From the NCBI GenBank assembly GCA_964595665.1, contig CAZQQS010000005.1, positions 2,159 to 34,158 on the forward strand: 32,000 nucleotides of DNA, in the 5' to 3' direction. This DNA comes from an uncultured archaeon (GTDB taxonomy: Archaea > Iainarchaeota > Iainarchaeia > Iainarchaeales > 0-14-0-20-30-16). Shown here one piece after another: positions 696-31,180 of the stretch. Numbering within the stretch: position 1 is the first letter of the stretch; each line of letters begins with the position of its first letter. The position numbers and the translations under genes were made by a program. The notes beneath the pieces are model-generated. The model did no database searches. It worked only from the letters and a program-made list of their open reading frames with translations, and was not told the origin of the DNA.

Positions 696-1027
696 CCCTT
701 ACAATTATTTGAAGTACATATATACGTCTTTTTTAAATTAATTATGTAATTGTTATTTTCATCAATAATTAAATTTTTATCCTCAAATCTTACAGTATTT
801 GCAAAATTATAATTAATATTTGCATCAGAAGTATCTACACTTTTAAATGCAGAATATGCTAAAATATATTCATTAAAATTATTTACATTTGAATTATACA
901 ATTTTGAATTTGCATCCAAATCATTCACATAATAAAAAAACATAGTTAATGCAAAGATAAATAACATTAATGCCAAAATCATATCAAATGACACTTGACC
1001 TCTATTCATTAGTAACACCATCTTCAT
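692..1027 (-). CDS. Minor pilin-like protein with class III signal peptide
   Basis: 111-aa ORF containing MNRG|QVSFDMILALMLFIFALTMFF, with Gln at +1 and Asp at +5. The likelier start is the internal Met at 1009 (MNRGQ...), which gives a short leader and removes the overlap with the upstream gene. Confidence 0.6.
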   Translation of the reverse strand: MKMVLLMNRGQVSFDMILALMLFIFALTMFFYYVNDLDANSKLYNSNVNNFNEYILAYSAFKSVDTSDANINYNFANTVRFEDKNLIIDENNNYIINLKKTYICTSNNCKG

Positions 1028-1466
1028 TTACAATTAAATTAAATGTTAATTTATTCTCTAAAGTATTTTTATTTTCAAAGTTACAAGGTATAGTTAATTC
1101 TCGAGAACAAATAAAATCTTCACAAAAAGATTTTATAGTAGAATCATAGTCTTCATTTTGAGAAATTAATTTATAAGAATAACCTATGTTATTATTCTTA
1201 CAATAAAAATTAGAATCTTTAGGCAATTCAATTTCAACAGTAAACTTACCAGAATTATAATTTTGTAATAAAGAATATTTAGAATTTATTTCTTCTAAAC
1301 CTTTATCCAAAGTATTTACATTAATCATATCCAAAACAGAATTTCTAGAATAATCTCTTAATGGAATAATTATTACTTCAATTAAAATCAAAATAATTAA
1401 TAAGATTAATAAGAACTCAATACTTAATTGTCCTTTATTATTTAAATTAAAGAAATTCCTATCCAT
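1002..1466 (-). CDS. Minor pilin-like protein with class III signal peptide
   Basis: 154-aa ORF. MDRNFFNLNNKG|QLSIEFLLILLIILILIEVII has Gln at +1, Glu at +5 and a hydrophobic helix. It overlaps the 3' end of the peptidase gene by 25 nt. Confidence 0.65.
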   Translation of the reverse strand: MDRNFFNLNNKGQLSIEFLLILLIILILIEVIIIPLRDYSRNSVLDMINVNTLDKGLEEINSKYSLLQNYNSGKFTVEIELPKDSNFYCKNNNIGYSYKLISQNEDYDSTIKSFCEDFICSRELTIPCNFENKNTLENKLTFNLIVNEDGVTNE

Positions 1467-2536: not shown

Positions 2537-2545
2537 AAATAATAA

Positions 2546-2734
2546 TTAATCGAATAGTTTTTGAAAGTATTCATTTTTGTACTCTGCAATTCGTTCTTTA
2601 GCCGCATTACCCAAATACCTTAAATTAAAGGCAAATAAAGTTACTATGGCAACCAAAATAATTGCAAAAACAATAGTCAAAAGGTACTCAATAGAAACTT
2701 GAGCACCTTTATCCTTCAAAAACATATTTCTCAC
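2546..2734 (-). CDS. Flp-sized type IV pilin (class III signal peptide)
   Basis: The ORF-track start at 2734 is GTG. The ATG at 2725 gives MFLKDKGA|QVSIEYLLTIVFAIILVAIV, which aligns with the start of the neighbouring pilin. Gln +1, Glu +5 and Tyr +6 are present. The mature part is only ~50 aa. Confidence 0.8.
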   Translation of the reverse strand: MRNMFLKDKGAQVSIEYLLTIVFAIILVAIVTLFAFNLRYLGNAAKERIAEYKNEYFQKLFD

Positions 2735-2932
2735 TTATTCAATATCAGCCAATCCTTTTGCTTTGAGGGCATTATAATCTAGATTGCCAAGTTGAGTGTT
2801 TACATCTGTTTTTGCTTGATTTGCAATGTTTACAACTACCGCAATTACTATTGCTGCTAATACTATAGCACCACCAATAATTAACAAGTACTCTAATGCA
2901 CCTTGTGCTTTTTTATCTTTTAAGAAAGTCAT
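2735..2932 (-). CDS. Flp-sized type IV pilin (class III signal peptide), likely major pilin
   Basis: 65-aa ORF. MTFLKDKKA|QGALEYLLIIGGAIVLAAIVIAVV carries the QGxxEYLLxxGG pattern typical of the archaeal class III signal-peptide family. A strong GGAGG lies 8 nt upstream (revcomp of 2936-2950: TTGGAGGAATTATTATG). Confidence 0.85.
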   Translation of the reverse strand: MTFLKDKKAQGALEYLLIIGGAIVLAAIVIAVVVNIANQAKTDVNTQLGNLDYNALKAKGLADIE

Positions 2933-2957
2933 AATAATTCCTCCAATATATCTCCAG

Positions 2958-3131
2958 TTATACTAATTTAGTTAAATCATCTAATTGTTCTGTTCCTTTA
3001 TTATAATCTTTAACTGCTTGAGTTTTTACAAAATATCCTATAATGGCTACTGCAACAATAACACCACCAATAATTAAAAGGATTTCTATTGATGTCTGCG
3101 CCTTGGTATCTTTTGTAAACCTCATAATCAT
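2958..3131 (-). CDS. Third Flp-sized type IV pilin (not in the supplied ORF track; 57 aa)
   Basis: Hand translation of the reverse strand gives MIMRFTKDTKAQTSIEILLIIGGVIVAVAIIGYFVKTQAVKDYNKGTEQLDDLTKLV followed by a stop (tta at 2958-2960). It has the same KA|Q..IE.LLIIGG leader/helix as the two downstream pilins. It starts 9 nt after the stop of the platform gene. Confidence 0.75.
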   Translation of the reverse strand: MIMRFTKDTKAQTSIEILLIIGGVIVAVAIIGYFVKTQAVKDYNKGTEQLDDLTKLV

Positions 3132-3140
3132 CACATTATA

Positions 3141-4049
3141 TTAAAGCGCCCCTATTAATAAATATTTCGTTAAAAATTTAGCCATATAAAACACAACATA
3201 AGCTATTCCCAAAAATACAGGCAAATAAAAGAATATTTTAGCATATTTTTTCTCTCTCATTATTACAACCATTAAAGTTGAAGCTAAAACCTGTATAAAC
3301 ACAAATATTGTTAATACTGTTTCCAACAAGTTCTTTACACTTAAAGCGTCAGCTACACTTTTAGCATTTGCCAAACCAGTAGTAGCAGAAATACCCATTA
3401 AAAACTCAATCAAAGTAACTACTAAACCATAAATTCCCGGAGCTATAATTGCTCCTGCTGAAACAATAAATAACATTTGCATCATAGTTTTTGCTTTTCT
3501 ATCTAATTCTAATTTATACAATTTTCGCATATCTTCAGATAATTCCTCTAAAATGTCTGCTAATGATGCTCCTGCTTTAATAGTATCATTAATTATAGAA
3601 ATTGTTTTTCTTACCATTTCAGAATTAACATTTTCTGAAATTATATTTAGAGATTCTTCAAAATTATATCCTTGTTCTAATCTTAATAAAACATTTTCTA
3701 ATTCTATATTTAATGGACCATATTCATAACTAGTTAATTCTCTTATTGCATATTCGTATGTACCACCTGATTTCAATAAATAAGCAATCTCTCTTAATGC
3801 ACTCGGAAAATGTTTTTCAATTAATGCAATTCTCTTTTCTTCCAAAATTAAAGGATAACCAATAAAAAAATCAATAATTACAAATAAACCCACAAACCCC
3901 AAAACTAAATTATTTAATAATAAAAAACTGCTGAATAAAACAACCAAACCAAAAATCAAAGACAGTATAAACCACAGATTTACATTAATCCTAATATTAT
4001 TTCTATAAAGTATTGTTTGGTATTTTTCTAAAAACAACATAATAATCAC
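3141..4049 (-). CDS. Type IV filament platform protein, single T2SS-F domain (TadC/FlaJ-like)
   Basis: 302-aa ORF with N-terminal TM helices. The cytoplasmic helical domain has the FPSALREIAYLLKSGGTYEYAIREL motif (T2SS-F-type lP.al..l..ll.aG), followed by C-terminal TM helices. It overlaps the upstream paralog as ATGA. Confidence 0.8.
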   Translation of the reverse strand: MIIMLFLEKYQTILYRNNIRINVNLWFILSLIFGLVVLFSSFLLLNNLVLGFVGLFVIIDFFIGYPLILEEKRIALIEKHFPSALREIAYLLKSGGTYEYAIRELTSYEYGPLNIELENVLLRLEQGYNFEESLNIISENVNSEMVRKTISIINDTIKAGASLADILEELSEDMRKLYKLELDRKAKTMMQMLFIVSAGAIIAPGIYGLVVTLIEFLMGISATTGLANAKSVADALSVKNLLETVLTIFVFIQVLASTLMVVIMREKKYAKIFFYLPVFLGIAYVVFYMAKFLTKYLLIGAL

Positions 4050-5188
4050 ATATTTGGTTTAATACTTTTAATATACAAAACTAACATCAAAAAAATCATT
4101 GGAAATACTACTAAAAATGCTAATGCAACAACCAAAGGAGTTAAAGGCAAGGCATTTAAAAAAGAAACGTTTGAACCTAACGGAGCATTTCTTATTCCTG
4201 AAAGAATTGCCAACATTACAGGAATAACTATTCCTACAAAAATATAAATTACCCCAAAGAAATTCATTTTACCAGTAAACATATCTATATCTGACATTAA
4301 TTGATAAGAAACATCATCTGCAATAGTACTCATAATTTGAGATAAATTTCCACCAGATTTTAACGCTCTTAATAAGTGCCCAATTGCGTTTTTTAATGCA
4401 AAAGATTTCGTTCTTAAAGACAAAGCTCTCAAAGAATCTTTTATGTCAGAACCTTCTTCAACTTCTAAAACTGTTTTCATTAATTCTTCTGATAAAACCC
4501 CATAATCTGCAACTGCAACAGTTTTAATTACTTTATATAAATCCATTCCAGAACGCAACAACATAGACATATGTCTTAATGCAAAAGGTAAATTAGCATC
4601 AATTAATTTCGCTCTTTTTTTTGCAATTGATGTAGGGTATTTTAAAATAAAAAATACACTGAAAATAATTAAGAAAATGGATAAAATAATTGGTATCAAA
4701 TATCCTAAATTAAATGTTATAAATACTGCAAAAAAACTACCTATCAACAAAATATTTGTAAAAAATAATATAACTGAAGACATTGCCAAATATTGTGTTG
4801 CACTATAATTAATATCTGCAGAATATAATTCCAAAGATAACACTTTTGATTCTGGAAACGCCCCCAAAATTTTTCGTGAAATCAAACCAAAGAATCCAGA
4901 AAATCTTTCATATATTTTTCCTAATTTTCTAACAAAAGGATTAAAACTATATTGTAAATCTTTTGGTCTCAATACTTCTATTTTAGATCTCTTACCTTCT
5001 GAAATTAAAGATCTTAATTCTTTTAAATTTGTATTGTCTGGACCAATCAGTCCTTGTTTTTCATATTTTGTTTTTATTCTATTAACTATAGCATCAACTT
5101 TAGACATATCCAATTGTTCTTGAACTTTAGCTCTAGTTTTATTTTCTGTATATGTTTGTTGATAAGCCATAAAATCACTTTTGCTCAT
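4046..5188 (-). CDS. Type IV filament platform protein, single T2SS-F domain (TadB/FlaJ-like)
   Basis: 380-aa ORF containing LPFALRHMSMLLRSGMDLYKVIKTV (T2SS-F motif) flanked by TM helices. It has a ~120-aa soluble N-terminal extension and overlaps the ATPase gene by 14 nt. Confidence 0.8.
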   Translation of the reverse strand: MSKSDFMAYQQTYTENKTRAKVQEQLDMSKVDAIVNRIKTKYEKQGLIGPDNTNLKELRSLISEGKRSKIEVLRPKDLQYSFNPFVRKLGKIYERFSGFFGLISRKILGAFPESKVLSLELYSADINYSATQYLAMSSVILFFTNILLIGSFFAVFITFNLGYLIPIILSIFLIIFSVFFILKYPTSIAKKRAKLIDANLPFALRHMSMLLRSGMDLYKVIKTVAVADYGVLSEELMKTVLEVEEGSDIKDSLRALSLRTKSFALKNAIGHLLRALKSGGNLSQIMSTIADDVSYQLMSDIDMFTGKMNFFGVIYIFVGIVIPVMLAILSGIRNAPLGSNVSFLNALPLTPLVVALAFLVVFPMIFLMLVLYIKSIKPNM

Positions 5189-6926
5189 AATACTTAGAAA
5201 TGTATTTCATTAATTCATTTTTATCTCGAATATTTTTATCTACTAACAAATCAAAAAAATGTTTTCTATTATCAATTTCATCTTTAATTTGTTGTAAAGA
5301 TTTTCCGGAATATAACGAAATATTTTTCAAAACTTTTGAAGGCATGGACGTATCAATTAATTTATCTCTTCGAGGATCCCATTCAAATATTTTTTGTGTT
5401 CTAACGTTATCTTCTAAAACTCCCGTAATCTCAGAAATCTCTACAATTCTTCTAATTGTTCCTTTTCTTCTATCGTGCAACCTACTTTCAACAATAATCA
5501 TATCCAAACCAGACAACATCATTTTAGGAACATCCATTGGAGGATTAGTAATTCTTACAATTGTTTCTTCTGAAGAATTCGCGTGCAAAGTTCCTAAAGA
5601 ACCATCATGTCCAGTATTCATTGCAGTAAATAAAGATTCTGCTTCTTTACCTCTTACTTCACCAACTATAATTCTATCGGGTCGCATTCTTAATGCATTC
5701 TTAGTTAACATTTCCAAAGAAATTTCCCCAGAACCTTCAATTCCAGGAGGTCTGGCTTCTAATCTAATCCAATGCTTTAAAGGTAAATTTAATTCTGCAG
5801 TATCTTCAATAGAAATAACTCTATCAAATTCAGGTATCAAAGAACACAAAACATTTAGCAGTGTTGTTTTTCCAGAACCCGTGCCCCCAGAAATAACTAT
5901 GTTTGCGGGTTTAATTCCCAACCCCTCAACACAAGTCCATAAAAATGCAGCAACATATGAATCTAATGTCCCATTGTTTATCAAATCAATTATTGTATAA
6001 GGATCTTCTCTAAACTTTCTTATTGTTAATGTTGAGCCCAAAACACTTGCAGGAGGTAAAGTAGCATTAACTCTTGAACCATCTGGTAAACGAGCATCTA
6101 ACAATGGCTGCGAGTAATCTATTCTTCGACCAGCATATCTTGCAATTCTACCAACAATATCTTGAATTTCTTTATCTGTATAAAAAATAATATTTGTAGT
6201 CATCATTTCATATTGTCTATGAAATACATATACAGGAGTATTAGGCCCAATAATCATAATTTCTTCTAATAAATCATCTTTTAATAATAAATCTATTTTG
6301 CCAAAACCAACCATTTCTCTAACAACACTTTCAGCATAAAATGTTTGCATACTTTCAGGTATTTTTAATTCTGGACTTGATGAAATAATTTCCATAACTT
6401 TTTGATAATAAACATTCCATCTTTGTTTTTCATCTCTAATTTTATATGGTGCTAAAGAAATAATTCTTGTTGCTGCTTCTTTAATTGTATTAATAATTTC
6501 TTGTTCACTTGTATTGGCTTTTGGTACAGGAACTTCATAATGTAAAATAGGGGAATTATTTAATTTACAAATTGTTACTTGATTATATTTGGCAATAACT
6601 TGCTTATCTGCATTAGATAATGAATCTACGTTCAAATCTTTTGTTTCTTTTATTGCACTTTCTATTTTATTAAAATCTTTTTTCTCACCAATTGAAACTT
6701 CTTTAGTTAACACAAAATCATCAGAATTATTCATTTCTTTTTCAGAATTTTTTTGAGTAGATTCCACAACTGTTTTTTTCTCACCTTTTATTAATTGTTC
6801 TAATTCAGAAAAATCTTTAGAATTATCTTTTTGATTTTCTTTAAAGTTTATTTCTGAATATCCTGGTTTTTTAATTTCTTGTTTAGGTTTTTCCTCTTTA
6901 AAAAAATCGCCAATTATATCTCCCAT
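5175..6926 (-). CDS. Type IV filament assembly ATPase (FlaI/ArlI/TadA/VirB11 superfamily)
   Basis: 583-aa ORF. Walker A is ISGGTGSGKTTLLNVL, Walker B and following residues are RIIVGEVRGKEA, and the His box is NTGHDGSLGTLHANS. The first ~110 aa are K/E/N-rich low-complexity sequence. Confidence 0.9.
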   Translation of the reverse strand: MGDIIGDFFKEEKPKQEIKKPGYSEINFKENQKDNSKDFSELEQLIKGEKKTVVESTQKNSEKEMNNSDDFVLTKEVSIGEKKDFNKIESAIKETKDLNVDSLSNADKQVIAKYNQVTICKLNNSPILHYEVPVPKANTSEQEIINTIKEAATRIISLAPYKIRDEKQRWNVYYQKVMEIISSSPELKIPESMQTFYAESVVREMVGFGKIDLLLKDDLLEEIMIIGPNTPVYVFHRQYEMMTTNIIFYTDKEIQDIVGRIARYAGRRIDYSQPLLDARLPDGSRVNATLPPASVLGSTLTIRKFREDPYTIIDLINNGTLDSYVAAFLWTCVEGLGIKPANIVISGGTGSGKTTLLNVLCSLIPEFDRVISIEDTAELNLPLKHWIRLEARPPGIEGSGEISLEMLTKNALRMRPDRIIVGEVRGKEAESLFTAMNTGHDGSLGTLHANSSEETIVRITNPPMDVPKMMLSGLDMIIVESRLHDRRKGTIRRIVEISEITGVLEDNVRTQKIFEWDPRRDKLIDTSMPSKVLKNISLYSGKSLQQIKDEIDNRKHFFDLLVDKNIRDKNELMKYISKYYEQK

Positions 6927-8487: not shown

Positions 8488-10071
8488 TTAAATTTTATCC
8501 AAAGCTTTTAATCTTTTATCTATTTCTTTTTCAGATTCCAATCTTTCAAAATCATAATCTTTCATGTCAACAAATTTCATATACTTTACCAAATTAGGAT
8601 GCACTCTTAAAACTTGTTTAAACATTTCTTGACAAATTAATCTATAATCTGGATGCCCTTGCCTAATTGTTCTTAATTCTAATAAATGATATAAAGCTCT
8701 TAAATTTAATTTAAAATACCATCTTAAATTATATGCAAATGGAACACAATATTGCGCTTTTTCAGGATTTGTTTTTACCAAATCCAAATATAATTCATTA
8801 GCTTTATCTAATGCGAATTTATACTTAGAATCACAACCTGCCAAAACTAAATCTTTAGGAATTTCATAACCAAAATAAGTAGTTAATAATTGTCTTTCTT
8901 GTGTTAAAATTCTATGTCTTTGTAAATCTCTATATGCCCCAAAATTTCCTAAAATCTCAAAGGTATAATCTACATTTTCAAATGCTCTTAATGGTTTATG
9001 TCTTCTATTTTTTCTCTCACCAACATAATCATAAATGATTTTATCTTTTTCATCCTCAGTTAACAACTTTATTTTATCATAACATTCTTGCAAAGATAAA
9101 TTTGAACTCTTAAACAAAATCTTCGATAAAATTTTATCTTCTGCTTCTAAATCATAATCAATTAATATTACTCGCTCATTATCTTGTCCAATTAAATTAA
9201 AGTTATTTGGATAAGAAACGCTTTTCAAATAATCTTGTAATGCTAAACCAAATTCGCTCTTACTTCGTTTAATAAATGATGGAAAAACTTTTCCTAATTC
9301 ATCATACATTTCTTCTCCTAAATTTTTAATCTCATTTAAATCCGAAACAAATGATTTATTTATTAAATATTCGAATGCTCTACCATTTCCATACATTCCA
9401 AAATTTGTTAATGTACTCGCAGGCAATAAACCTCTAATGGTATCACAAGTTTTTGCTCTCAAAATTGCTTCAAAAGCCCTCTCAGATAAATTTTCACTAT
9501 TTGGAATTTTTTCTGCATAATAAGTTCTCATAATTTGCATTAACTCACAATAAGTGTCAAACAACAAATTCATTGTCGCAATATATTTTTCTGCAAATTC
9601 TGAATTCATAATTTCTTTATCTTTATAATATTTGTATTCGCCATTTAATTTTTCATCAAAATAAATATACCTAGAAGATTTTTCCAAAGGACTTATTCCT
9701 ATTCTAGCATCTTCAAAAAATTTAGTTGCTAAATTAGAAACATTTTCTAAAGCTATATGTGCTCCACCTAATTCTGCAACAGAATCATCCCCATATTGAA
9801 CTAAAACTCTATTATAAAATTCTTCTGCTTTTTTTATTGCTATTAATTGTTCATCAATATTTTTTACATCTCCAACAATATTTTTAAAATCATTATCTTT
9901 ACTATTAAAAAAATCATCTAAAAATAATCTTCTTAAATCTTTTTCTGATCGACTATATCTTGCAAATAAAGTTCCTTTTACTACTTCTGGCAAATTAATT
10001 AATGCGAATGTATTGCTTTCAACATTTGTAAAAAAATGTTTTAATATTTTCTTTTCATCTTCATTATACAT
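8488..10071 (-). CDS. thyX: FAD-dependent thymidylate synthase, long two-domain form (ThyX-like)
   Basis: 527-aa ORF. The N-terminal half has FARYSRS. The C-terminal half has YRDLQRHRILTQERQ (RHR motif) and LELRTIRQGHPDYR. It lies directly upstream of, and co-directional with, glyA. Confidence 0.7.
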   Translation of the reverse strand: MYNEDEKKILKHFFTNVESNTFALINLPEVVKGTLFARYSRSEKDLRRLFLDDFFNSKDNDFKNIVGDVKNIDEQLIAIKKAEEFYNRVLVQYGDDSVAELGGAHIALENVSNLATKFFEDARIGISPLEKSSRYIYFDEKLNGEYKYYKDKEIMNSEFAEKYIATMNLLFDTYCELMQIMRTYYAEKIPNSENLSERAFEAILRAKTCDTIRGLLPASTLTNFGMYGNGRAFEYLINKSFVSDLNEIKNLGEEMYDELGKVFPSFIKRSKSEFGLALQDYLKSVSYPNNFNLIGQDNERVILIDYDLEAEDKILSKILFKSSNLSLQECYDKIKLLTEDEKDKIIYDYVGERKNRRHKPLRAFENVDYTFEILGNFGAYRDLQRHRILTQERQLLTTYFGYEIPKDLVLAGCDSKYKFALDKANELYLDLVKTNPEKAQYCVPFAYNLRWYFKLNLRALYHLLELRTIRQGHPDYRLICQEMFKQVLRVHPNLVKYMKFVDMKDYDFERLESEKEIDKRLKALDKI

Positions 10072-11966: not shown

Positions 11967-12968
11967 ATGATTTTTGGATTGTGTGGATATAATGCCTCTG
12001 GAAAAGGAGAAATTGCAAATATTTTAAAGGAAAAAGGATATGTTTATTTTTCATTAAGCGATATTATTAGAGAGGAATGTGAAAAAAGAGATTTAGAAAA
12101 AAATAGAGAAAACTTAGTTGCAATTGGAAATGAATTTAGAGAAAAACGTGGTGCAAATTATTTTGCCGAAATGATCTTAAAAAAAATAAATTTAGAAAGA
12201 AATAATAATAAAAATTTTATAGTTGATAGTATAAGAAATCCAAAAGAAGTTGAAACTTTAAGACAAGATAAAGAATTTGTTTTAATAGGAATAAATGCAC
12301 CAATAGAATTAAGATTTTCTAGATCTCAATCGCGAGGCAGGAATGAAAATGCATTAACTTTAGAAGAATTTATTAAACAAGAAGAAAAAGAGAAATCTTC
12401 AAAAGAAAATGCACAACAATTAGATACGGTTTACAAAATGGCTGATAAATATATTTACAATGATGGTTCTTTAGAAGAATTAAAACAAAGATTAGATTTT
12501 GTTTTAAATAATGAAAGGAAAAAAAGACCTAATTGGGACAAATATTTTATGAATATTGCAGAAGTAGTAGCTACTAGAGCATCATGTCTAAGACGAAACG
12601 TAGGTTGTGTTTTAGTTAAAGACAAACAAATTATAGCAACGGGGTATAACGGCCCTCCAAAAGGACATCCAACATGTGATGAATTAGGGGGTTGTTTAAG
12701 AGACATTACAAAAACACCTAGTGGGCAAAGATTTGAAATTTCCAGAGCGGTACATGCTGAACAAAATGCAATTTCTCAAGCAGCAGAAAATGGAATTTCA
12801 ACTAAAGGCGCAACATTATATTGTACAACATATCCTTGTGTTTTATGTATTAGAACAATTATTAATGCTGGTGTTAAAAAAGTAATTTATAAAGAATTTT
12901 ATCCTGATGATGGAACAACAGATATCGCTAGAAGGTCTGGATTAGAAATGGTTCAATTTAAAGATTAA
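11967..12968 (+). CDS. Fusion protein: N-terminal P-loop (archaeal UPF0200/dNMP-kinase-like) domain + C-terminal dCMP deaminase
   Basis: N-terminal part: GLCGYNASGKGE (P-loop), FIVDSIRNPKEVETLR and FSRSQSRGR (lid-like). C-terminal part: CMP/dCMP deaminase zinc motifs VHAEQNA and YPCVLC. It is a single uninterrupted 333-aa ORF. Confidence 0.85.
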   Translation: MIFGLCGYNASGKGEIANILKEKGYVYFSLSDIIREECEKRDLEKNRENLVAIGNEFREKRGANYFAEMILKKINLERNNNKNFIVDSIRNPKEVETLRQDKEFVLIGINAPIELRFSRSQSRGRNENALTLEEFIKQEEKEKSSKENAQQLDTVYKMADKYIYNDGSLEELKQRLDFVLNNERKKRPNWDKYFMNIAEVVATRASCLRRNVGCVLVKDKQIIATGYNGPPKGHPTCDELGGCLRDITKTPSGQRFEISRAVHAEQNAISQAAENGISTKGATLYCTTYPCVLCIRTIINAGVKKVIYKEFYPDDGTTDIARRSGLEMVQFKD

Positions 12969-14545: not shown

Positions 14546-14875
14546 TTAATCCCCCAATACATTAATATTTACATATTCAAAATTTAAATTTTGTTTTATT
14601 TTATTTTCTAAAACTTCTTCATAATTTCCCAAGTCAATTCCAGGAATAAAAATTATATTAATATCTATATTACTATCATTTATATTACTTTCCAAATTAT
14701 ATTTCCCAGAATAGTTATTTTGCATTAAATAAGTATCTAAATTAGATTTTGTTATCCCTAAAGCAACAATTTCAACATTTTCTTTTGGATAACTCGCAAA
14801 TATTATTATAACTAATACTACGACAACAGCTAAAACAAATAAAAATTCAAAGCTAGTCTGGCCTTTTTTACTCAT
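14546..14875 (-). CDS. Orphan pilin-like protein with class III signal peptide
   Basis: 109-aa ORF. MSKKG|QTSFEFLFVLAVVVVLVIIIF has Gln +1, Glu +5 and a hydrophobic helix. It lies immediately downstream of secD, far from the pilus operon. Confidence 0.6.
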   Translation of the reverse strand: MSKKGQTSFEFLFVLAVVVVLVIIIFASYPKENVEIVALGITKSNLDTYLMQNNYSGKYNLESNINDSNIDINIIFIPGIDLGNYEEVLENKIKQNLNFEYVNINVLGD

Positions 14876-17583: not shown

Positions 17584-18876
17584 TTATTTAATATCAAACA
17601 AATTTCTTTGAATTTTTGCTTTTTTTTGTGATATTTGGTTAAAAATATCATTATCTACGGCTAATTTATCCTCTTTTGAAAAACTAATTATTGGTTTTCC
17701 ATATTTCCCTCCACCACCTGGAAAATAACTTACTAAGCCATTTCTAAAAGCTAAAATATATTTTGTTATATCTGGATTAATATTGTTTAAATCGGATTCT
17801 TTAAAATCAAATAAAATATTTGTTTCAGTTTCCCCAATTTTTATAAAATCCCACCAAATATTTTGAACATTCTTAGATAATAAGTTTTTATTATTTATTG
17901 CCAAGCTTATAATTTCTGACAAAGGCAAAATATATTTGTAATTAGCCCGATTATAATTCAAAATTTTATTTTGAGAAATTTCTTCAATTCTTTCACAAAC
18001 TCCTTTTTTAATTTGGCCTTTACAAATACATCTCCACTTTAGTTTTATTGCTTCTTGCAAAGTATAAAAAGTTAAACAATTTTTACATCTTGTTTTATGA
18101 TATATTCCTTCTTTTGGATCTAAACCTATATTAAATAATAATTCTCGCCCATCTTTTTTTTGCAAAGCTTTTTGTATTTCATAATAATTTGGTTTTTGTA
18201 AATTAAAAATATTAAATTCTCTTCCTAACCTGTGAGGCCAAAAACTATGTGCATCACTATTTGATAAAAAATTAATATCTTTTAATTCTTCAATATTATT
18301 TGCCAAATAAGAATCTGCACTTAATCCCAATTCTAAAAAAGAAATATTTTCAGAATATTTACCATAAGCTTCTTGCAAAGAATTATAATGTGCATAAATT
18401 CCAAAATAGGGTGTATACGCGTGCGCCGGACCAAACATTAAATTTAATTCTACACACAATTTTGCAATTTGTTCTGCGCTTGCATCATACCACGGCCTAC
18501 CATTCATAGAACCATCAAATTTTTTACAAAATATTTTGCTTTTTTCTTTAAAATCAATAATCGATTTCTTATCAGGAAATAAAATTAAATGGTGTGTCCT
18601 ATCTTTTGCTTGTATTTCAGTAGATAAAATAAAATTATTTCTTTTTTCCCCAAAAATAGTTTTTACATCATAAAAAAATGTTTCGTCTTCAAATTGCAAT
18701 TTATTAAATACAGATTCTTGCCAAGTTTTGTGTGTTAAATCCCCAATAGGACAAATGTTCAAACCTTTATAAAATCCCATTTCAGCTATTTTATCCACAC
18801 TTAAATTTTTACTTGTGCCTCCAGCATAAGGTCCATGAATATGTAAATCAGCATTATATTTTTGCATTTGAATCAC
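17584..18876 (-). CDS. PHP-domain endonuclease Q-like protein (deaminated-base/AP-site endonuclease family)
   Basis: 430-aa ORF. It has a run of motifs I recall from archaeal EndoQ: DLHIHG, GPAHAYTP, LELGLSADS, LSNSDAHS, HRLGREFN, GLDP..G.YH, a Cys cluster (CKNC...CIC), IKKGV and PGGGGKYG. The C-terminus is QRNLFDIK. The assignment is from memory of family motifs, not a search. Confidence 0.75.
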   Translation of the reverse strand: MIQMQKYNADLHIHGPYAGGTSKNLSVDKIAEMGFYKGLNICPIGDLTHKTWQESVFNKLQFEDETFFYDVKTIFGEKRNNFILSTEIQAKDRTHHLILFPDKKSIIDFKEKSKIFCKKFDGSMNGRPWYDASAEQIAKLCVELNLMFGPAHAYTPYFGIYAHYNSLQEAYGKYSENISFLELGLSADSYLANNIEELKDINFLSNSDAHSFWPHRLGREFNIFNLQKPNYYEIQKALQKKDGRELLFNIGLDPKEGIYHKTRCKNCLTFYTLQEAIKLKWRCICKGQIKKGVCERIEEISQNKILNYNRANYKYILPLSEIISLAINNKNLLSKNVQNIWWDFIKIGETETNILFDFKESDLNNINPDITKYILAFRNGLVSYFPGGGGKYGKPIISFSKEDKLAVDNDIFNQISQKKAKIQRNLFDIK

Positions 18877-19399
18877 TATAAATTAACCACAAATAATAAA
18901 ATAAAATAAAAAATATGAAAAATCCAATTTTAAAAAATATGGTGTGTAAAACATCTACCAAATTTAAATTTACAAAACCCAATAAAAAAATCATAGCTAA
19001 CATTCTAATTAAATTAAAATAAATAAATAAAATTAGCAATACAAGAAATCCAATAAGTTTATTTTTAAAATTTACTTTTAAATTAGCAAATATTAGTGCT
19101 GTGAAAACACATAATTCAAATAAACCAGTACAAACATCAATAATATTTATTTCATTCCCAAAAACAAAAATTCCATAATTAATTCCATTAAAAAATAATT
19201 CATTAATTATAGTTAAATTGTTTAAAATGTTGTGAGCAATATAGGAATAAAAATAAGATAAATTTAAAAAACTAGTAATATAATTTAAAAATAATAAGAT
19301 TATAACAAATAGTGCTAAAAATAATATTGCGTGATAAAAAAAATTCGAATAAATTTTGGAATATAATTTTTTTATTCTTTTAGAAAAATCTTTATTCAT
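18854..19399 (-). CDS. Minimal exosortase/archaeosortase-family membrane protein
   Basis: 181-aa polytopic ORF with IIDVC(90)TGLFE (C-[ST]-G context), FNLIR(132)ML (N-x-x-R context, 42 residues after the Cys) and VLH(152)T. It overlaps the patatin gene as ATGA and overlaps the EndoQ-like start. Confidence 0.55.
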   Translation of the reverse strand: MNKDFSKRIKKLYSKIYSNFFYHAILFLALFVIILLFLNYITSFLNLSYFYSYIAHNILNNLTIINELFFNGINYGIFVFGNEINIIDVCTGLFELCVFTALIFANLKVNFKNKLIGFLVLLILFIYFNLIRMLAMIFLLGFVNLNLVDVLHTIFFKIGFFIFFILFYYLWLIYSDSNAKI

Positions 19400-26754: not shown

Positions 26755-26762
26755 TTGCTTTT
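26738..26762. terminator. Perfect 25-nt palindrome spanning two convergent stop codons (possible bidirectional terminator)
   Basis: AAAAGCAATTAA-T-TTAATTGCTTTT has 12-nt arms and a 1-nt centre. It contains the Rpp21 TAA (26752-26754) and part of the stop of the 977-aa gene (26761-26763). Confidence 0.4.
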
Positions 26763-29694
26763 ACTTTTTAGGAAATAACAAAAATAAAACTGCGATTATT
26801 CCAATTATAATTAATGGATTTATTCCACCCAACGAACCCAATATAGATGAGCTAGATTGTGTTGCAGTCTTTAATGTTTCTCCAAATACAGGAGTTATAT
26901 TATAAGCTTGACTAATTCTTGATGTTGCAGCATCTTTAGATCTGCTAATAGTCCACAAAATCAAAGCCAATAAAGCAATTATAGCCAGTCCTGAGAATCC
27001 ACCCATACCGCCCCAAACTCTTTTATACCAAGGTTCTGGTTTTTTAGGTTCTTTTGGTTTTTCAGGTTCTTCTGGCTCTTTTGGTTCTGGTTCTTTATCT
27101 GGTTCTTTAGGTTCTGGTTCTTTATCTTTTCCATCAATCTTTTCTTCCAATTCTGTAAACCTTTCATCAATTTTAGTTAATAATTCTTCAATAGTAGATT
27201 TAAATTCTGAAGCAGATAACAACCCCAAACCATTTATTTGTTCTATAATTTTAGTATTATTTGCTTCTAAAGCAGTTTCTAAAATTGGATCTAATATTTC
27301 TTTAATATTATCTTTTGTCAAAACTTTTTCTTTTAATTCTTTTAATATTTCTAAAGATTCCTTACTCAATGTTTTTGTTTCGCCAATTTCTGAAATAATG
27401 TGAATTATATTATCCATTAAAGCTTCTTTTTCGGCTTTAGTAAATCCTTCTATGCCTTCAATTGCTGTTTTTAATTCATCTCTTATAGCATCCATTCTAG
27501 ATTCTAAATTATCAAATCTTTCTTTTAATGCATCTCTAATAACATCTGCATATTCTGTACCTTTAAAATATTCTTTCATTTTATCTAAAACGCCTTGAGG
27601 AATATCTGATTCAGTAATTGCTTCTTTTACAATTTTTTTCAAATTAGTTTCACCAACTAAATCTTTTATTTCAGACATTATTTTTTCTAAATCGCCAAAT
27701 CTAGTACTGCTAAATTGATGTAAAGCAATTAAGTTTTCTCCTAATTCGAATATGTGATCTTGAGTTAATTTAAATCCATCTCTCATTAAATTTCTAACTT
27801 CTGCAAATCTTTGTAAAATTTGTTTATATCTACCTTTCCATTTCTTTTCAATTCTTCCAATTAAAACATCATTATTTTTTGCTAAAGATTCAGCTAATAC
27901 TGTTTTTAATATTTTTTCAAATATTTGTGGTTGAGATTTTAATGCATTTTCAATTTTTGCCAAAGATTCTGTAGCTAACCTTAAAGTTTCTTCTATTCTA
28001 TTTGCTTGCAATCCAGATCTAGTTTCCATATCTCGCAAAGCTTCGCTTAATCTTAAAAACTCACTTTCAATAAACTTTTTATCTTCTGCAGATAATTTTC
28101 TGTCTTTTCTAACTTCTTCTAAAATAGTTTTTAAGTCTTCAGAAATTTTATCTACTTTTCTTTCTAATTCAGCTAACTTAGTTTTTAAACCGAAATCTCT
28201 TAATCGAGCTTTTTCTGCTTCCGCTTCAATTGCCCTTATTAAATCATCTCTAGTAATTTTTAATTTACCAACAATATTAGTTTCAGCTCTTAAAATTAAT
28301 TCATTAATCTTTTTCAAATCTTCTTCGCTTAATTTTGAACCTTTTACACCTTTTAAAATATTAATTACAGTTTGTTGAGTTTCAATTAAAACCTTAATGC
28401 TAGAAACACTTGCTGGGTTATTAGATAAATTAATTATTGTTTGATGTACTTGTCTCGCATCTGTAAAATTAAATGTTGTTTTAACCCACTCAAAAAATTG
28501 ATTAAATTCTGTAAATCTCGCCCTAAAACTAGGATTTTCTCTTATAAACGTTATAAATATAGTTTCTGCTCGTTCTTGTTCTGGAGTTTTCTTTTCTTTA
28601 ATTGGTCCGAAATCCATTTCTAATTGTTTAGGATTTTTTTTTTCAGGGCCCCTACCATCTAATTCAAATGGTTCTTTTTCTCCCTCAGTTAAAAGTTTTT
28701 GTTCTTTTCCAACAGACAATCTTTTATTTAATTCTATTTTAATTTGTAATAATTGTAATATTTCTCTTCTTGCTGTTTGTCTTTGACCTGGATTTAATCT
28801 TGGATAATCGTTTAATAATTCAAATAATCTTCTTCTATCTCTAGGATTTAAATTATTTGCTTCTACTAACGCACCCTCTACAATAGATTCTATAGCTTTA
28901 GAATCAAATCTTAATCTTTCTAATTCGCCTCGAATATATTTTACTAATGATCTTTCTTGTGGTTCACTTATAGCAAAACTAGCCCCTTTTACTACCACGC
29001 TACCTTTACCAGTTGGCTCAGGTTTTACTAATTTAACATTTCTTTTTGCACCAACAGGCAAACCTGTTTTTGGATCAATTATTTTACTAACTTCTTTAGG
29101 TTTAGGTTCTCTAATACTTTTTGAAGTTAATATAGCATTACCGTTTTTATCAACAACCCTAATTGGACCTTTAGATGAAGATTCGCTTGCCGGAATGGTT
29201 GCACTAGCTTTTGTTCCTCTAGAATTTACTTGTACAGCGCTAGCATTATCTAAACCTTCAATCATTTCAGAATTTGGTCTAACTCTAGAATTCGCATTTG
29301 TACCTTTTTTTTGAGCTATTAATTTATCTGCCCTAATTAATTCTTCTAAAATTCTCTTTCTAAAACTTATTTCTTGAATACGTTTTCTCATTACGGGTTC
29401 TTTATCTCCAAAAAAACCTGTTTTGCCTTTTCTTTTATTTTCAATTATTTTTTCAGCTTCAATACTCAAATCTTTAAATAATTTAGTTCTTGTTTGTGGA
29501 GTTAATCGAGAATATTCTATAGTAATTTGTTTTTTTTGATATTCTAAACCACGTCTTGCTTTTTCTAATAAAATTATGTTTTTTGGCCTATTATTACGTT
29601 CTTTTGCTTCTCTTTGGCGTCTAGCCAACCTTTCAGCATTTATTTCTTCCCTAGGTTTTGGTTTAATAATTTCTCTTGGTTTCTCTACAGCCAT
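26761..29694 (-). CDS. Large uncharacterised coiled-coil protein with PEPK-repeat linker and C-terminal two-helix membrane hairpin
   Basis: 977-aa uninterrupted ORF, which is remarkable in AT-rich DNA. AGGTGG lies 5 nt upstream of the ATG. There is no N-terminal signal peptide; the N-terminus is MAVEKPREIIKPKPREE. Residues ~470-880 are E/K/L/I-rich heptad-like sequence. The tail has KEPEPKEPDKEPEPKEPEEPEKPKEPKKPEP, then GGFSGLAIIALLALILWTI, a ~44-aa loop, PLIIIGIIAVLFLLF and PKK. Confidence 0.75.
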   Translation of the reverse strand: MAVEKPREIIKPKPREEINAERLARRQREAKERNNRPKNIILLEKARRGLEYQKKQITIEYSRLTPQTRTKLFKDLSIEAEKIIENKRKGKTGFFGDKEPVMRKRIQEISFRKRILEELIRADKLIAQKKGTNANSRVRPNSEMIEGLDNASAVQVNSRGTKASATIPASESSSKGPIRVVDKNGNAILTSKSIREPKPKEVSKIIDPKTGLPVGAKRNVKLVKPEPTGKGSVVVKGASFAISEPQERSLVKYIRGELERLRFDSKAIESIVEGALVEANNLNPRDRRRLFELLNDYPRLNPGQRQTARREILQLLQIKIELNKRLSVGKEQKLLTEGEKEPFELDGRGPEKKNPKQLEMDFGPIKEKKTPEQERAETIFITFIRENPSFRARFTEFNQFFEWVKTTFNFTDARQVHQTIINLSNNPASVSSIKVLIETQQTVINILKGVKGSKLSEEDLKKINELILRAETNIVGKLKITRDDLIRAIEAEAEKARLRDFGLKTKLAELERKVDKISEDLKTILEEVRKDRKLSAEDKKFIESEFLRLSEALRDMETRSGLQANRIEETLRLATESLAKIENALKSQPQIFEKILKTVLAESLAKNNDVLIGRIEKKWKGRYKQILQRFAEVRNLMRDGFKLTQDHIFELGENLIALHQFSSTRFGDLEKIMSEIKDLVGETNLKKIVKEAITESDIPQGVLDKMKEYFKGTEYADVIRDALKERFDNLESRMDAIRDELKTAIEGIEGFTKAEKEALMDNIIHIISEIGETKTLSKESLEILKELKEKVLTKDNIKEILDPILETALEANNTKIIEQINGLGLLSASEFKSTIEELLTKIDERFTELEEKIDGKDKEPEPKEPDKEPEPKEPEEPEKPKEPKKPEPWYKRVWGGMGGFSGLAIIALLALILWTISRSKDAATSRISQAYNITPVFGETLKTATQSSSSILGSLGGINPLIIIGIIAVLFLLFPKK
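27031..27129 (-). repeat. In-frame tandem repeat encoding a Pro/Glu/Lys (PEPK) linker
   Basis: The 18-mer ggttctggttctttatct occurs at 27083-27100 and again at 27110-27127 (27-nt period), amid further ggtt(c/t)t units. It encodes GKDKEPEPKEPDKEPEPKEPEEPEKPKEPKKPEP immediately before the first TM helix of the 977-aa protein. Confidence 0.85.
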
Positions 29695-29727
29695 TTATAC
29701 CCACCTTAATATATATATATTCATCAT

Positions 29728-29742
29728 GGAAAAGTATATAAA
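29728..29742 (-). promoter_or_regulatory. Second copy of TTTATATACTTTTCC promoter motif, upstream of the 977-aa gene
   Basis: The reverse complement of 29728-29742 is TTTATATACTTTTCC. It lies 34 nt upstream of the ATG at 29694, leaving room for a short 5' UTR carrying AGGTGG. Confidence 0.35.
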
Positions 29743-29754
29743 TGAATACTTTTC
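29729..29754. promoter_or_regulatory. 9-bp inverted repeat bracketing the TATA-like element
   Basis: GAAAAGTAT (29729-29737) and ATACTTTTC (29746-29754) are perfect reverse complements with an 8-nt spacer ATAAATGA. The repeat lies between the 211-aa gene stop and the 977-aa gene start. It could be an operator or an inter-cistronic hairpin. Confidence 0.3.
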
Positions 29755-29777
29755 TTGTTATTTTTTGAGTTTGTAAG

Positions 29778-30404
29778 TTAAAACATATTTGGTTCGTATG
29801 TTCTTGTCTTACCACCTCTCCCTAAAATTATTATAATTATTAAAACTACAACTATTAAAATACTTGGATTTTGAACTACGTTAGACATTGTACTTCGAGT
29901 TAAATAATACATTAAAAATGCAGCCAATAAAATAAACGCAAAAATTCTTATACTTGGTTTTTTCATAAAAGCTCTCATTCTTTGTAAAAACGGAACTTTA
30001 CGAGTATATTCAGGATCTTCACTTAATTCTTTTTCTTTTAATCTTCTTTCTTCAATTCTTTTTTCTTCTAATTCTCTTTCAGAAACTCTTCTCAAAGCAT
30101 CTTCATTTACAGATACGGTTGGTTCAGATCTTTCTACATCTTCAGACTGTTGTCTTTTTAAATAATTTTCATACTTTTTCTTAGCTAATCTAGCATAATA
30201 GTCAAATTCTTCTCTTTCTAAATCTCCAGATCTCAACTCTAATTTTAACACTCTTAAAAAATTATTGTATTCTGCGGTAGAAATAATCCTTTTATTAGAA
30301 ATATTGTCATAAACATCATAATTTCGAGGAATTTCTTTTAGTTTAGGTTTAAGAGCCTCTCTCGGACGTTCTGCGAAAATTTTTCTCGGTGCTTTTTTTT
30401 CCAT
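29778..30404 (-). CDS. Uncharacterised charged helical protein with C-terminal two-helix membrane hairpin
   Basis: The track start at 30413 is GTG. The ATG at 30404 gives MEKKAPRKIFAERPREALKPK. The middle is R/E/K-rich helical sequence. The C-terminus has SIRIFAFILLAAFLMYYL, a 12-aa loop, SILIVVVLIIIIIL and a basic tail. This is the same architecture as the 977-aa neighbour. Confidence 0.6.
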   Translation of the reverse strand: MEKKAPRKIFAERPREALKPKLKEIPRNYDVYDNISNKRIISTAEYNNFLRVLKLELRSGDLEREEFDYYARLAKKKYENYLKRQQSEDVERSEPTVSVNEDALRRVSERELEEKRIEERRLKEKELSEDPEYTRKVPFLQRMRAFMKKPSIRIFAFILLAAFLMYYLTRSTMSNVVQNPSILIVVVLIIIIILGRGGKTRTYEPNMF

Positions 30405-30440
30405 AAATACCACTTAGTCAAATATAGAAATACAAAATAC

Positions 30441-30455
30441 TTTATATACTTTTCC
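30441..30455 (+). promoter_or_regulatory. TATA box plus conserved downstream 7-mer (TTTATATACTTTTCC)
   Basis: The TATA 5' end is 29 nt upstream of the ATG at 30470. The identical 15-mer recurs upstream of the 977-aa gene. The symmetric TATA may also serve the divergent 211-aa gene. Confidence 0.4.
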
Positions 30456-30469
30456 TATATATTTCTAAT

Positions 30470-31180
30470 ATGCATAAATACAAAAAATTCATTTTAAACG
30501 CATTTACCCAATATTTTAAAACTATACATGTTAGTTTTGGATTTGCATTAGCATTAATAACTTTGGTAAATTTGTTATATGGAATAAACTTTAGTGCATA
30601 CTTTGGAAATTTAACTTATACTCAAATTGACTTGTTAAGTTTTGCATATATTATTCCCACAATTGTATTATGTGCGTTCATTAATTCTCTATTTGTAACA
30701 ATTTTAATTTATTTGACAAAAAAGAACATTATGCAAGAAACAAGAAAAGTTTATCTTTTAGAATTTGTTAAAAAACACACAACTTATGTTTTTATTTACA
30801 ATTTGGTAATTTACTTTTTATTATTCCTGATATTTTTGATTTTTGAAAATACAAAAGCAAATTTCTTAATCCCTATTTTTGCAATTGTTTTATTATTCTT
30901 AAACTTTTACACAATACAATCAATCATTATTGATAACAAACATGTTTTTGGCGCCATTTCATATGGATTTTTTTTCTTAAAAAGAAATATTTGGAAAAGT
31001 ATTTTTATTGCATTATTTTTAACATTAATTTATTTTATAATTGCATTAATTAGTTTTTACTTTTCATTTGGTTGGATTATATCAATTATACTTTACACAA
31101 TTTTCTTTTATCCATTTTCAGAAATATTAAAAACAGTTTTTTACTTAACTAAATACGATATTGTAAAAAGTTATTTTTGA
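30470..31180 (+). CDS. Polytopic membrane protein, unknown function
   Basis: 236-aa ORF with ~6 hydrophobic segments. A TATA-like TTTATATA lies 29 nt upstream of the ATG. No family motif was recognised. Confidence 0.6.
   Translation: MHKYKKFILNAFTQYFKTIHVSFGFALALITLVNLLYGINFSAYFGNLTYTQIDLLSFAYIIPTIVLCAFINSLFVTILIYLTKKNIMQETRKVYLLEFVKKHTTYVFIYNLVIYFLLFLIFLIFENTKANFLIPIFAIVLLFLNFYTIQSIIIDNKHVFGAISYGFFFLKRNIWKSIFIALFLTLIYFIIALISFYFSFGWIISIILYTIFFYPFSEILKTVFYLTKYDIVKSYF

Follow-up and report, generated by a model that had tools for sequence, protein, structure and literature searches.

A977 and B211, a pair of orphan proteins with a conserved membrane anchor in a small DPANN archaeal clade, as candidate membrane-tethered scaffolds

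What kind of protein joins a large, rapidly diverging helical region to a nearly invariant membrane anchor at its very C-terminus, and does it act together with a small neighbour that appears to repeat its plan? This question is raised by two adjacent genes in a stretch of 32,000 nucleotides from an uncultured archaeon (positions 2,159 to 34,158 of contig CAZQQS010000005.1, assembly GCA_964595665.1; the whole stretch is called the window below). They encode a 977-aa protein, A977, and its small neighbour, B211; next to B211 lie the genes of a polytopic membrane protein, C236, and of the 266-aa D266. A preliminary description had taken A977 and B211 for cytoplasmic proteins that are tethered to the inner face of the membrane and serve as a scaffold, a reading that we find plausible. 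The orphan family described here is genuine and clearly delimited; its pattern of conservation is unusual, and it comes with a small partner that is a paralogue. We see an even chance that the two are membrane-tethered cytoplasmic scaffolds or tethers with a basic N-terminal part that binds a polyanion or a common partner.

The window has a G+C content of 22-30% and carries archaeal housekeeping genes (L15e, MutS, MutL, SecD/F, RFC, ThyX and SHMT). Since the closest species-representative genomes by MutS are two metagenome-assembled genomes (MAGs) labelled "Candidatus Diapherotrites archaeon" (67% and 64% identity), we take the source organism to be an uncultured DPANN archaeon. Related loci and contigs are given L-numbers and A977 family proteins P-numbers below.

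Both open reading frames (ORFs) are real, as judged from the ORF listing and from the homologues found for each. In good agreement with the preliminary description, no family could be recognised for either protein: searches against Pfam, NCBIfam, PHROG and PDB sequences returned nothing above noise. The best Pfam match of A977, to a Nup188 subdomain (E 0.0017), is below the cut-off and non-significant, and there is a weak match to PHROG 3336, tail tape measure (E 0.0036, 16.9 bits). A word-indexed search yielded three homologues for A977 and five for B211, and when the query was a profile of 13 family sequences, this type of search came back with no more than the same 4 proteins, low-complexity words having filled the candidate list. 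An exhaustive hidden Markov model (HMM) search of 1.84 billion representative proteins gave 12 A977 matches only, and six remote full-length members of 759-1003 aa (P0011, P0013-16 and P0018) were matched only via the C-terminal ~250 positions. The A977 profile had no match in genome contigs, the B211 profile had none in metagenome contigs, and no relative was found among the viral contigs of IMG/VR. Every A977 family member with an examined contig comes from the clade whose nearest named genomes are the "Ca. Diapherotrites" MAGs. The nearest GTDB representative, CG08 "Diapherotrites", has the C-terminal 348 residues of an A977 homologue at a contig end, and a JGI contig of the CG08 lineage has a full 833-aa A-type gene.

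Structure prediction was similarly uninformative about kinship. The AlphaFold2 (AF2) model of full A977 (4 sequences) is all-helical with a mean predicted local distance difference test score (pLDDT) of 49.6, and that of residues 440-977 (12 sequences), also all-helical, has a mean pLDDT of 47.0. Foldseek searches with both models against the PDB returned generic helical-repeat matches (E at least 0.1, TM-scores at most ~0.1), and the search of A977 against BFVD listed long helical proteins, tape-measure and SMC-like ones included, with TM-scores of 0.05-0.1 and root-mean-square deviations (rmsd) of 30-55 Å. A full-text literature search found no description of the A977/B211 family. We therefore treat A977 and B211, on the strength of these searches, as proteins without relatives outside one small DPANN clade.

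A977 lacks a signal peptide, as had been noted before: the maximum 19-aa hydropathy within residues 1-100 is -0.44, no class III signal is present, and the protein has exactly two hydrophobic segments, 898-916 and 955-973. The N-terminus (MAVEKPREIIKPKPRE) is basic and Pro-rich, and the part that follows at ~130-240 is rich in S, K, P and G, just as previously described; in the AF2 model residues 16-130 are helical and 130-240 disordered. Counted in 50-aa blocks from the N-terminus, the net charge is +8, +4, +5, +6 and +4. The small four-helix domain that comes next is kept in P0002 and P0003, with similar-looking segments in P0013-P0016 by eye only. It is followed by the cytoplasmic block at residues 369-450, which contains the invariant run K369-N387 among others, reaches a pLDDT of ~69-78 and is undetected in remote members.

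The ~400 residues that had been read as one heptad-like region are indeed helical and amphipathic: residues 440-854 are 81% helix in the low-confidence AF2 model, and the amphipathic periodicity is six standard deviations above shuffles. However, a crude heptad scan finds just four heptad-like stretches of 30-50 aa (483-534, 558-588, 714-761 and 824-859), and the AF2 secondary structure consists of 10-50-aa helices broken by loops. Since profile self-comparison reveals a ~100-aa unit in three or more copies (~585-640, 690-750 and 795-825; hhalign probabilities of 97% and 84% for the sub-profile against the core) and the heptads are short, the region is a repeat array and not one continuous coiled coil. 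The PEPK linker behind it is, as reported, exactly 33 aa long (residues 856-888, KDKEPEPKEPDKEPEPKEPEEPEKPKEPKKPEP) and corresponds to a tandem repeat in the DNA (Tandem Repeats Finder: 27-nt unit in 2.1 copies, 93% match, with further periods of 9, 15 and 18 nt); in the homologues this spacer varies in length and composition, being PEPK, G/K/D-rich or K/E-rich. The C-terminus comprises two transmembrane (TM) segments and a PKK tail, in accordance with the preliminary description, and the loop between TM1 and TM2 measures 39 aa here and 34-44 aa across relatives. The 324-aa P0019 keeps the N-terminal peptide, a basic helix, a charged spacer and the invariant anchor, and has an S/T/N/G-rich low-complexity tract instead of the repeats.

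The invariant columns of the A977 family fall almost all within the last ~45 residues. The family C-terminus reads ...I-T-P-V-I-G-E-T-A-K-T-A...S-x-L-G-S-L-G-G-I-N-P-L-I-I-I-x-I-x-V-A-L-F-L-L-F-P-K-K, with L955, G957, I958, N959, P960, I963, L970-F974 and K977 invariant over 13 sequences. We compared identities between the window and five distant lineages. MutS is 65-67% and L15e 63-69% identical to the distant orthologues, C236 is 52-59% and B211 30-33% identical, and A977 is split, with 24-29% for its cytoplasmic part and 53-67% for its last 50 residues. In the closest lineage, where MutS is 88% identical, A977 is 45% identical. Because of the contrast between 24-29% in the cytoplasmic part and 53-67% in the last 50 residues, at a MutS identity of 65-67%, the rod of A977 evolves several-fold faster than housekeeping proteins, the rate of the cytoplasmic part being about five times that of MutS or L15e, and the loop and TM2 are strongly constrained.

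B211 most likely starts at the ATG at 30404 (MEKKAPRK..., 208 aa) and not at the GTG at 30413, since the listed homologues begin at the same position. The earlier view of B211 as a miniature of the A977 plan is borne out: a basic Pro-containing N-terminus, with no hydrophobic segment by hydropathy, is followed by an E/R/K-rich stretch, by two TM segments around a loop of 12-13 aa, and by a basic tail, 14 aa remaining after TM2. In its helical domain the columns I44-K80 are invariant among close homologues and weakly kept in distant ones. When the family profiles of A977 and B211 are compared, the hairpins align with an hhalign probability of 93% (E 3.5e-7), a score to be read with the caveat that TM segments inflate profile-profile scores. 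The aligned features are K-K-x-x-W/F-x-K-R, TM1, S/T-R-S, N-P and TM2, the A977 loop having an insertion of ~30 aa. Since both have the juxtamembrane pattern and an N-P where TM2 begins, the two hairpins are likely to be homologous, and common descent of the anchors would account for part of the shared plan. The hairpins alone aligned; the helical domain of B211 has no significant profile similarity to A977. In ~300 kb of related DNA the HMMs of the two anchors match a single A-type and a single B-type gene at each locus, invariably side by side, and have no further match.

On which side of the membrane do the large parts lie? The preliminary description had assigned the greater part of both proteins to the cytoplasm, and this is upheld in so far as no export signal is present and the charges fit an N-in, loop-out, C-in arrangement, the signal from A977 being modest. 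The fit is clear for the B211 family, with hairpin charges of +3 to +4 in the N-flank, +1 in the loop and +2 to +4 in the tail, and one topology is expected for A977 and B211 because their hairpins are homologous. Judged by the positive-inside rule and the missing export signal, N-in, loop-out and C-in is the best fit for both. N-glycosylation sequons occur in the A977 family at chance level, and Cys is scarce, at 0-3 per protein, with a single member above 1.

The charge distribution of the A977 family is polar. The first 50 residues have a net charge of +6 to +12 and the first 200 a cumulative charge of +13 to +30, the blocks after residue 50 being mostly positive over the next ~150-200 residues and the membrane-proximal repeats neutral to acidic. 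This polarity between a basic N-terminus and an acidic membrane-proximal part is found in 12/12 members analysed, despite ~25% identity; the N-termini of the B-family are basic too. The claim of a common N-terminal peptide is likewise supported. The pattern P-x(0,1)-[RV]-[EK]-x(0,1)-[ILF] within the first 16 residues occurs in 12 of the 174 ORFs of at least 100 aa at ten loci, and each of the 12 belongs to the A, B or D family. Since the pattern was itself built from these proteins, what counts as evidence is the zero background alone. In the most distant members the motif becomes eroded.

A role as scaffold or tether, a membrane-shaping role and the partners of A977 and B211 are suggested by this architecture. 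We propose that the homologous C-terminal two-helix hairpin would anchor both proteins in the cytoplasmic membrane, with the short, near-invariant loop of A977 facing outward and all of its N-terminal part in the cytoplasm. From the membrane, A977 would then extend through the Pro/Glu/Lys spacer and the net-acidic ~100-aa helical repeats to a basic part ending in the P-R-E-I/L-type peptide. The invariant hairpin and loop would fix A977 at a defined membrane site or to a defined partner, the fast-evolving repeats would serve as a rod or spacer in which the precise sequence is of minor importance, and the basic N-terminal part with its peptide would dock to a polyanionic or common partner. Docking candidates are the nucleoid or RNA, the acidic rods of neighbouring molecules, as in an intermediate-filament- or lamin-like assembly, and a common hub protein. 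B211 would be a short version, alike in the kind of anchor and in the N-terminal peptide. The features of the locus are collected in Table 1.

Table 1. Position, strand and character of the features of the A977/B211 locus in the window
Feature	Position	Strand	Remarks
A977 ORF, 977 aa	26761..29694	(-)	Basic N-terminal part, helical repeats, PEPK spacer, C-terminal two-TM hairpin
A977 N-terminal motif, residues 1-17, MAVEKPREIIKPKPREE	29644..29694	(-)	Recurs in A-, B- and D-family proteins
A977 basic N-terminal region, residues 1-240	28975..29694	(-)	Net charge ~+27; partly helical, then S/K/P/G-rich
A977 small four-helix domain, residues 241-320	28735..28974	(-)	AF2 helices 244-316, pLDDT ~63-76
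A977 block of residues 369-450 (KTPEQERAE...FxEWV)	28345..28590	(-)	Best conserved cytoplasmic block in close subfamily
A977 helical-repeat core, residues 440-860	27115..28377	(-)	At least 3 copies of ~100-aa unit
A977 PEPK spacer, residues 856-888	27031..27127	(-)	DNA-level tandem repeat
A977 TM1, ~residues 895-917	26944..27012	(-)	Variable sequence; conserved W-x-K/R precedes; hydropathy 2.19-2.49
A977 predicted exoplasmic loop, ~residues 918-954	26833..26943	(-)	I-T-P-V-I/F-G-E-T-x-K-T-A ... S-x-L-G-S-L-G-G conserved
A977 TM2 and tail, residues 955-977, LGGINPLIIIGIIAVLFLLFPKK	26764..26832	(-)	Invariant
A977 promoter-like element, GAAAAGTAT-N8-ATACTTTTC	29729..29754	(-)	Perfect 9-bp inverted repeat around TATA-like box
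B211 ORF, 208 aa from ATG at 30404	29778..30404	(-)	Listed start GTG at 30413 gives 211 aa (29778-30413)
B211 N-terminal motif, MEKKAPRKIFAERPREALKPK	30330..30404	(-)	
B211 conserved helical domain, ISTAE(F/Y)NNFLRVLKL.LRSG..EREE(F/Y)D(F/Y)YARLA.KK	30174..30284	(-)	Alignment
B211 variable E/R/K-rich charged linker	30000..30122	(-)	Alignments; DNA tandem repeat 30028-30080
B211 TM hairpin (TM1, 12-13-aa loop ...QNP, TM2) and basic tail GRGGKTRTYEPNMF	29781..29954	(-)	Hydropathy, charge counts
B211 promoter-like element, GAAAAGTAT(ATAAA)	30446..30454	(-)	~45 nt upstream of B211 ATG
C236, polytopic, ~6 TM segments	30470..31180	(+)	Hydropathy; divergently transcribed
D266, soluble, 266 aa	31171..31971	(-)	Related N-terminal motif; patchy, not a fixed cluster member

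The four genes from A977 to D266 had been proposed to form a functional module with a conserved neighbourhood. The neighbourhood is conserved in part: C236, B211 and A977 are adjacent in every lineage, always in the order C236(-)/B211(+)/A977(+), with TopoIA on one side and small ORFs on the other, while D266 is patchy and the whole region from ELP3/TopoIA to MutS/MutL and beyond is syntenic in every locus. Three to four of the small ORFs, putative RNase P subunits, separate the trio from L15e and MutS; in the window there are three next to L15e, two of which match the RNase P subunits Pop5 and Rpr2 weakly and sub-threshold. C236 is the best conserved of the trio (52-89% identical across lineages) and matches no family in Pfam, NCBIfam or further profile searches. 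A C236 homologue of 30% identity is encoded on L099 (8736-9482, (+)), a distant, higher-GC archaeal contig, beside an AsnC-type helix-turn-helix (HTH) gene and TopoIA, and no A977- or B211-like gene is near it. Because this homologue has the same HTH and TopoIA neighbours without A or B, C236 is older and broader than A977/B211, and the A/B pair looks like an insertion beside it. With D266 lost in five lineages and C236 found without 211/977 partners in L099, the four-gene module is not sustained; support for a module is limited to A977 and B211, with C236, whose link is uncertain, possibly included.

C236 was also considered as an exosortase. The catalytic residues of archaeosortases and exosortases are a conserved Cys, Arg and His. 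Among 10 C236 sequences neither Cys nor His is invariant, S, A or G standing in for C68 and R for H103, for which reason the assignment was rejected.

D266 is present in the subclade of the window and in L089 and is absent from L003, L090, L092, L093 and L095. Its N-terminal peptide is MPKPRMPVEREF. The kinase fold that had been attributed to it finds no HMM support in Pfam or PDB profiles. By eye, its motifs VIIKE, ADLSEHF and FDLD resemble those of small atypical kinases, and D173, D186 and D188 are invariant.

A shared promoter motif had been a further argument for the module. It is true that A977 and B211 each have their own GAAAAGTAT with a TATA-like box ~45-55 nt upstream and a Shine-Dalgarno (SD)-like GGTG, all kept in relatives, but the element, read by eye, looks like one of the archaeal transcription factor B recognition element (BRE)/TATA type. 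The exact 9-mer GAAAAGTAT occurs 5 times in the window, 3 of these in the upstream regions of A977 and B211. The element upstream of A977 is kept before A-type genes in 9 of 11 loci, and the arms of the inverted repeat are kept in most relatives (L001-L003, L088, L090, L093 and L096) with a spacer of 4-8 nt; this repeat may represent either an operator or a symmetric BRE-TATA-BRE arrangement. An SD-like GGTGG stands 9 nt before the A977 ATG. Conserved promoter and SD-like elements would fit well-expressed structural proteins.

Several points weigh against a cytoplasmic tether built from A977 and B211. The positive-inside signal of the A977 family is modest, and the Pro/Glu/Lys spacer beside the anchor does not settle the side of the membrane: such spacers also occur by the membrane anchors of extracytoplasmic proteins, as in TonB and in Gram-positive wall-spanning regions. 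The S/T/N-rich tract of P0019 is of a kind often found in glycosylated surface stalks. Conservation is strongest in the outward loop and TM2, so the selected function may lie in or outside the membrane. The AF2 confidence is so low (mean pLDDT 49.6 and 47.0) that no fold backs the model. Finally, the adjacency of the trio says little about function because the entire surrounding region is syntenic.

This synteny, which runs from ELP3/TopoIA to L15e/MutS/MutL in every locus, would fit an explanation that dispenses with a joint system altogether: A977 and B211 would be fast-evolving, lineage-specific membrane proteins, their anchors related via local duplication and their adjacency inherited. 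The loss of D266 in five lineages, the solitary C236 of L099 and the separate promoter-like elements of A977 and B211 point the same way. We consider this explanation unlikely, if worth keeping in view, since A977 and B211 always co-occur with one copy each, have a homologous anchor in common, and carry an N-terminal motif that, apart from D266 where present, the remaining ORFs of the neighbourhood lack; common short N-terminal motifs argue for a common partner. A different rival turns the protein around. A977 could be a fibrillar surface or attachment protein with an extracellular large domain, exported by an unrecognised route and perhaps with the N-terminal peptide as signal, and its rapidly diverging rod of variable length, the PEPK spacer beside the anchor and the S/T/N-rich variant P0019 would all suit such a role, for which coiled-coil proteins (CCPs) of DPANN have been proposed as attachment factors (PMC11291902). 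It seems quite improbable to us: A977 has neither a signal peptide nor a class III signal, export would have to carry ~890 highly charged residues through the membrane, Lys and Arg abound in the N-flank of TM1 and the homologous hairpin of B211 is clearly N-in, sequons are not enriched in the family, and A977 lies ~20 kb from the type IV pilus genes of the window.

The extreme C-terminus of A977 also invites comparison with PGF-CTERM/PEP-CTERM-type sorting signals, in which a Pro-containing motif, a hydrophobic helix and a basic cluster follow a tract of small residues. GGINP, 14 hydrophobic residues and PKK form such a tripartite signal, invariant in 13 sequences and far more conserved in its layout than the remaining protein; a membrane enzyme, possibly the highly conserved polytopic C236 encoded beside A977/B211, would cut it and leave a TM1-anchored protein with a modified loop end. 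We regard this as very unlikely. NCBIfam and Pfam searches with E up to 1 found no sorting-domain or exosortase match for A977, B211 or C236, neither Cys nor His is invariant among the 10 C236 sequences, C236 occurs in L099 without substrates, the A977 passenger has no signal peptide, and a TM helix precedes the supposed signal; moreover, the 14-aa tail after TM2 of B211 means that its hairpin is not at the extreme C-terminus, and such proteins are few, a single one at each locus and 12 among all those searched. It would be a long shot, too, to see in A977 and B211 effector-like proteins that are put into the membrane of a partner cell during DPANN-host contact, in the manner of the chlamydial Inc proteins. 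Like these, A977 and B211 have a bilobed two-TM hairpin and helical, coiled-coil-type regions, are lineage-restricted and evolve fast; the conserved N-terminal peptide could be a secretion signal, and a host-dependent lifestyle is frequent in DPANN (PMC11291902). The Inc proteins, however, reach a host-derived membrane by type III secretion, and in them the hairpin usually sits towards the N-terminus. We see no link between the A977/B211 genes and any secretion machinery, there is no evidence for host attachment of the lineage, and the resemblance is architectural, no homology having been found with Pfam, PDB-sequence or Foldseek searches. Hardly any weight is left for A977 as a mobile-element remnant, for example a tape-measure-like virion protein, despite the weak tape-measure PHROG match and the tape-measure and SMC-like proteins in the BFVD list: at TM-scores of 0.05-0.1 and rmsd of 30-55 Å the latter are long all-helical look-alikes, and IMG/VR contigs contain no A977 relative. 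This idea was rejected on gene context and is close to refuted, as A977 lies in every lineage between RNase P subunit genes and topoisomerase I, among housekeeping genes that include L15e and MutS. The remaining probability belongs to functions outside the readings listed here.

Some further observations concern the rest of the window and the related loci. A type IV pilus/Tad-like gene set occupies 1002-6926, with a CpaF-type ATPase (5175-6926), two TadC/T2SSF proteins, a prepilin peptidase (1442-2536) and small class III signal peptide proteins (1002-1466, and also 14546-14875); no coiled-coil protein is encoded beside it, unlike in the CCP loci of cluster 2 DPANN. The ThyX-type ORF at 8488-10071 (-) is 527 aa long, ~2x the usual length, has two matched Thy1 stretches and may be a tandem-duplicated ThyX. 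An ORF at 11967-12968 (+) fuses an N-terminal AAA_17/AAA_18 (nucleotide kinase-like) domain to a dCMP/cytidine deaminase domain. Between SecF and a patatin-like gene (17584-19399, (-)) lie ORFs of 430 and 181 aa without a Pfam match at E<=0.001, the 430-aa one corresponding to related-locus proteins pre-annotated MJ0043_C. In two loci of the CG08-type 'Diapherotrites' lineage, L009 (3263-7102) and L096 (641-4480), the MutS ORF has 1279 aa compared with 808 aa in the window, ~470 aa more, which suggests a fusion or read-through with the downstream gene. L007 (ENA NODE_2676, coverage 0.9x) has the same gene order with most genes fragmented, most likely through assembly or sequencing error at this very low coverage, and its A977 homologue was not recovered intact.

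If A977 and B211 are indeed membrane-tethered scaffolds, they would join a short list of candidates for a membrane skeleton or for tethers in DPANN archaea, the cell biology of which is almost unknown. The practical value is modest, given a tiny family (12 among 1.84 billion) from uncultured organisms. The family can nevertheless be defined by its anchor signature ...ITPVIGETAKTA...LGSLGGINP-hydrophobic-FPKK, its paralogous small partner and its N-terminal motif, and these could be used for finding the proteins in metaproteomes and for targeting them in enrichments.

How do A977 and B211 relate to known systems? The nearest description within DPANN is that of the CCPs, which have nucleoporin-like HHpred matches, are encoded in cluster 2 DPANN and Undinarchaeota beside the CpaF/TadC genes of type IV pilus loci, and have been proposed as interaction factors (Hamm et al. 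2024, PMC11291902). Both are large helical coiled-coil-type DPANN orphans, and the matches of CCPs to nuclear-pore proteins recall the best, non-significant Pfam match of A977, the Nup188 subdomain. They differ in that A977 is ~20 kb from the pilus genes of the window (1442-6926), that none of the related loci has adjoining pilus genes, and that the A977 family, apparently a separate one, has 12 detectable members. A comparison with membrane fusogens of the atlastin/mitofusin type, which likewise have a C-terminal TM hairpin, fails on their N-terminal dynamin-like GTPase domain, as A977 has no GTPase or P-loop domain in Pfam or NCBIfam. In composition, the low-complexity Pro/Glu/Lys spacer beside the anchor resembles the flexible or rod-like tethers of ZipA and TonB, and since the former is cytoplasmic and the latter periplasmic, the likeness does not fix the side for A977.

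Likenesses of overall plan extend to three groups of structural proteins. EzrA, the division regulator of Firmicutes with spectrin-like repeats, is a scaffold rather than an enzyme, as A977 would be, and combines a membrane anchor with a large cytoplasmic array of ~100-aa helical repeats; its anchor is a single N-terminal TM segment, in contrast to the C-terminal hairpin of A977. No EzrA Pfam match and no sequence or structure similarity was found in PDB-sequence and Foldseek searches, and with regard to spectrin-like repeats, which fold as three-helix bundles, A977 has the ~100-aa periodicity (hhalign 97% and 84%), a pLDDT below 50 over most of the region and generic helical-repeat Foldseek matches (E at least 0.1). 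Lamins and the bacterial intermediate-filament-like, coiled-coil-rich proteins crescentin, FilP and Scy have a basic head, a more acidic helical rod, fast evolution and, on the scaffold reading, a structural role in common with A977, and lamins in addition C-terminal membrane attachment. Their heptad rods, however, are long and uninterrupted and they have no TM hairpin, whereas A977 has four heptad stretches of 30-50 aa, and it has no Filament-type Pfam match.

The KASH nesprins of the linker of nucleoskeleton and cytoskeleton (LINC) complex resemble A977 in having a huge, poorly conserved cytoplasmic part made of helical repeats, a conserved C-terminal membrane segment and a short conserved peptide on the far side. 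KASH proteins are eukaryotic, and no homology was found; they have one TM segment and a free luminal C-terminus of ~30 aa that binds SUN, whereas A977 has two, a far-side loop of 34-44 aa and a C-terminus that returns to the cytoplasm. A speculative view, to which we give little credence, sees in the trio a clade-specific transmembrane coupling device, an independent archaeal functional analogue of the LINC/nesprin or lamin systems. The outward loop of A977, possibly with the hairpin of B211 and C236, would bind a component of the envelope or of a partner cell, and the ruler-like rod would link it to the nucleoid or to a lamina-like lattice via the basic N-terminal parts. Should the scaffold reading hold, the layout of conserved anchor, disposable rod and sticky head known from lamins, nesprins and EzrA would have evolved independently in these archaea.

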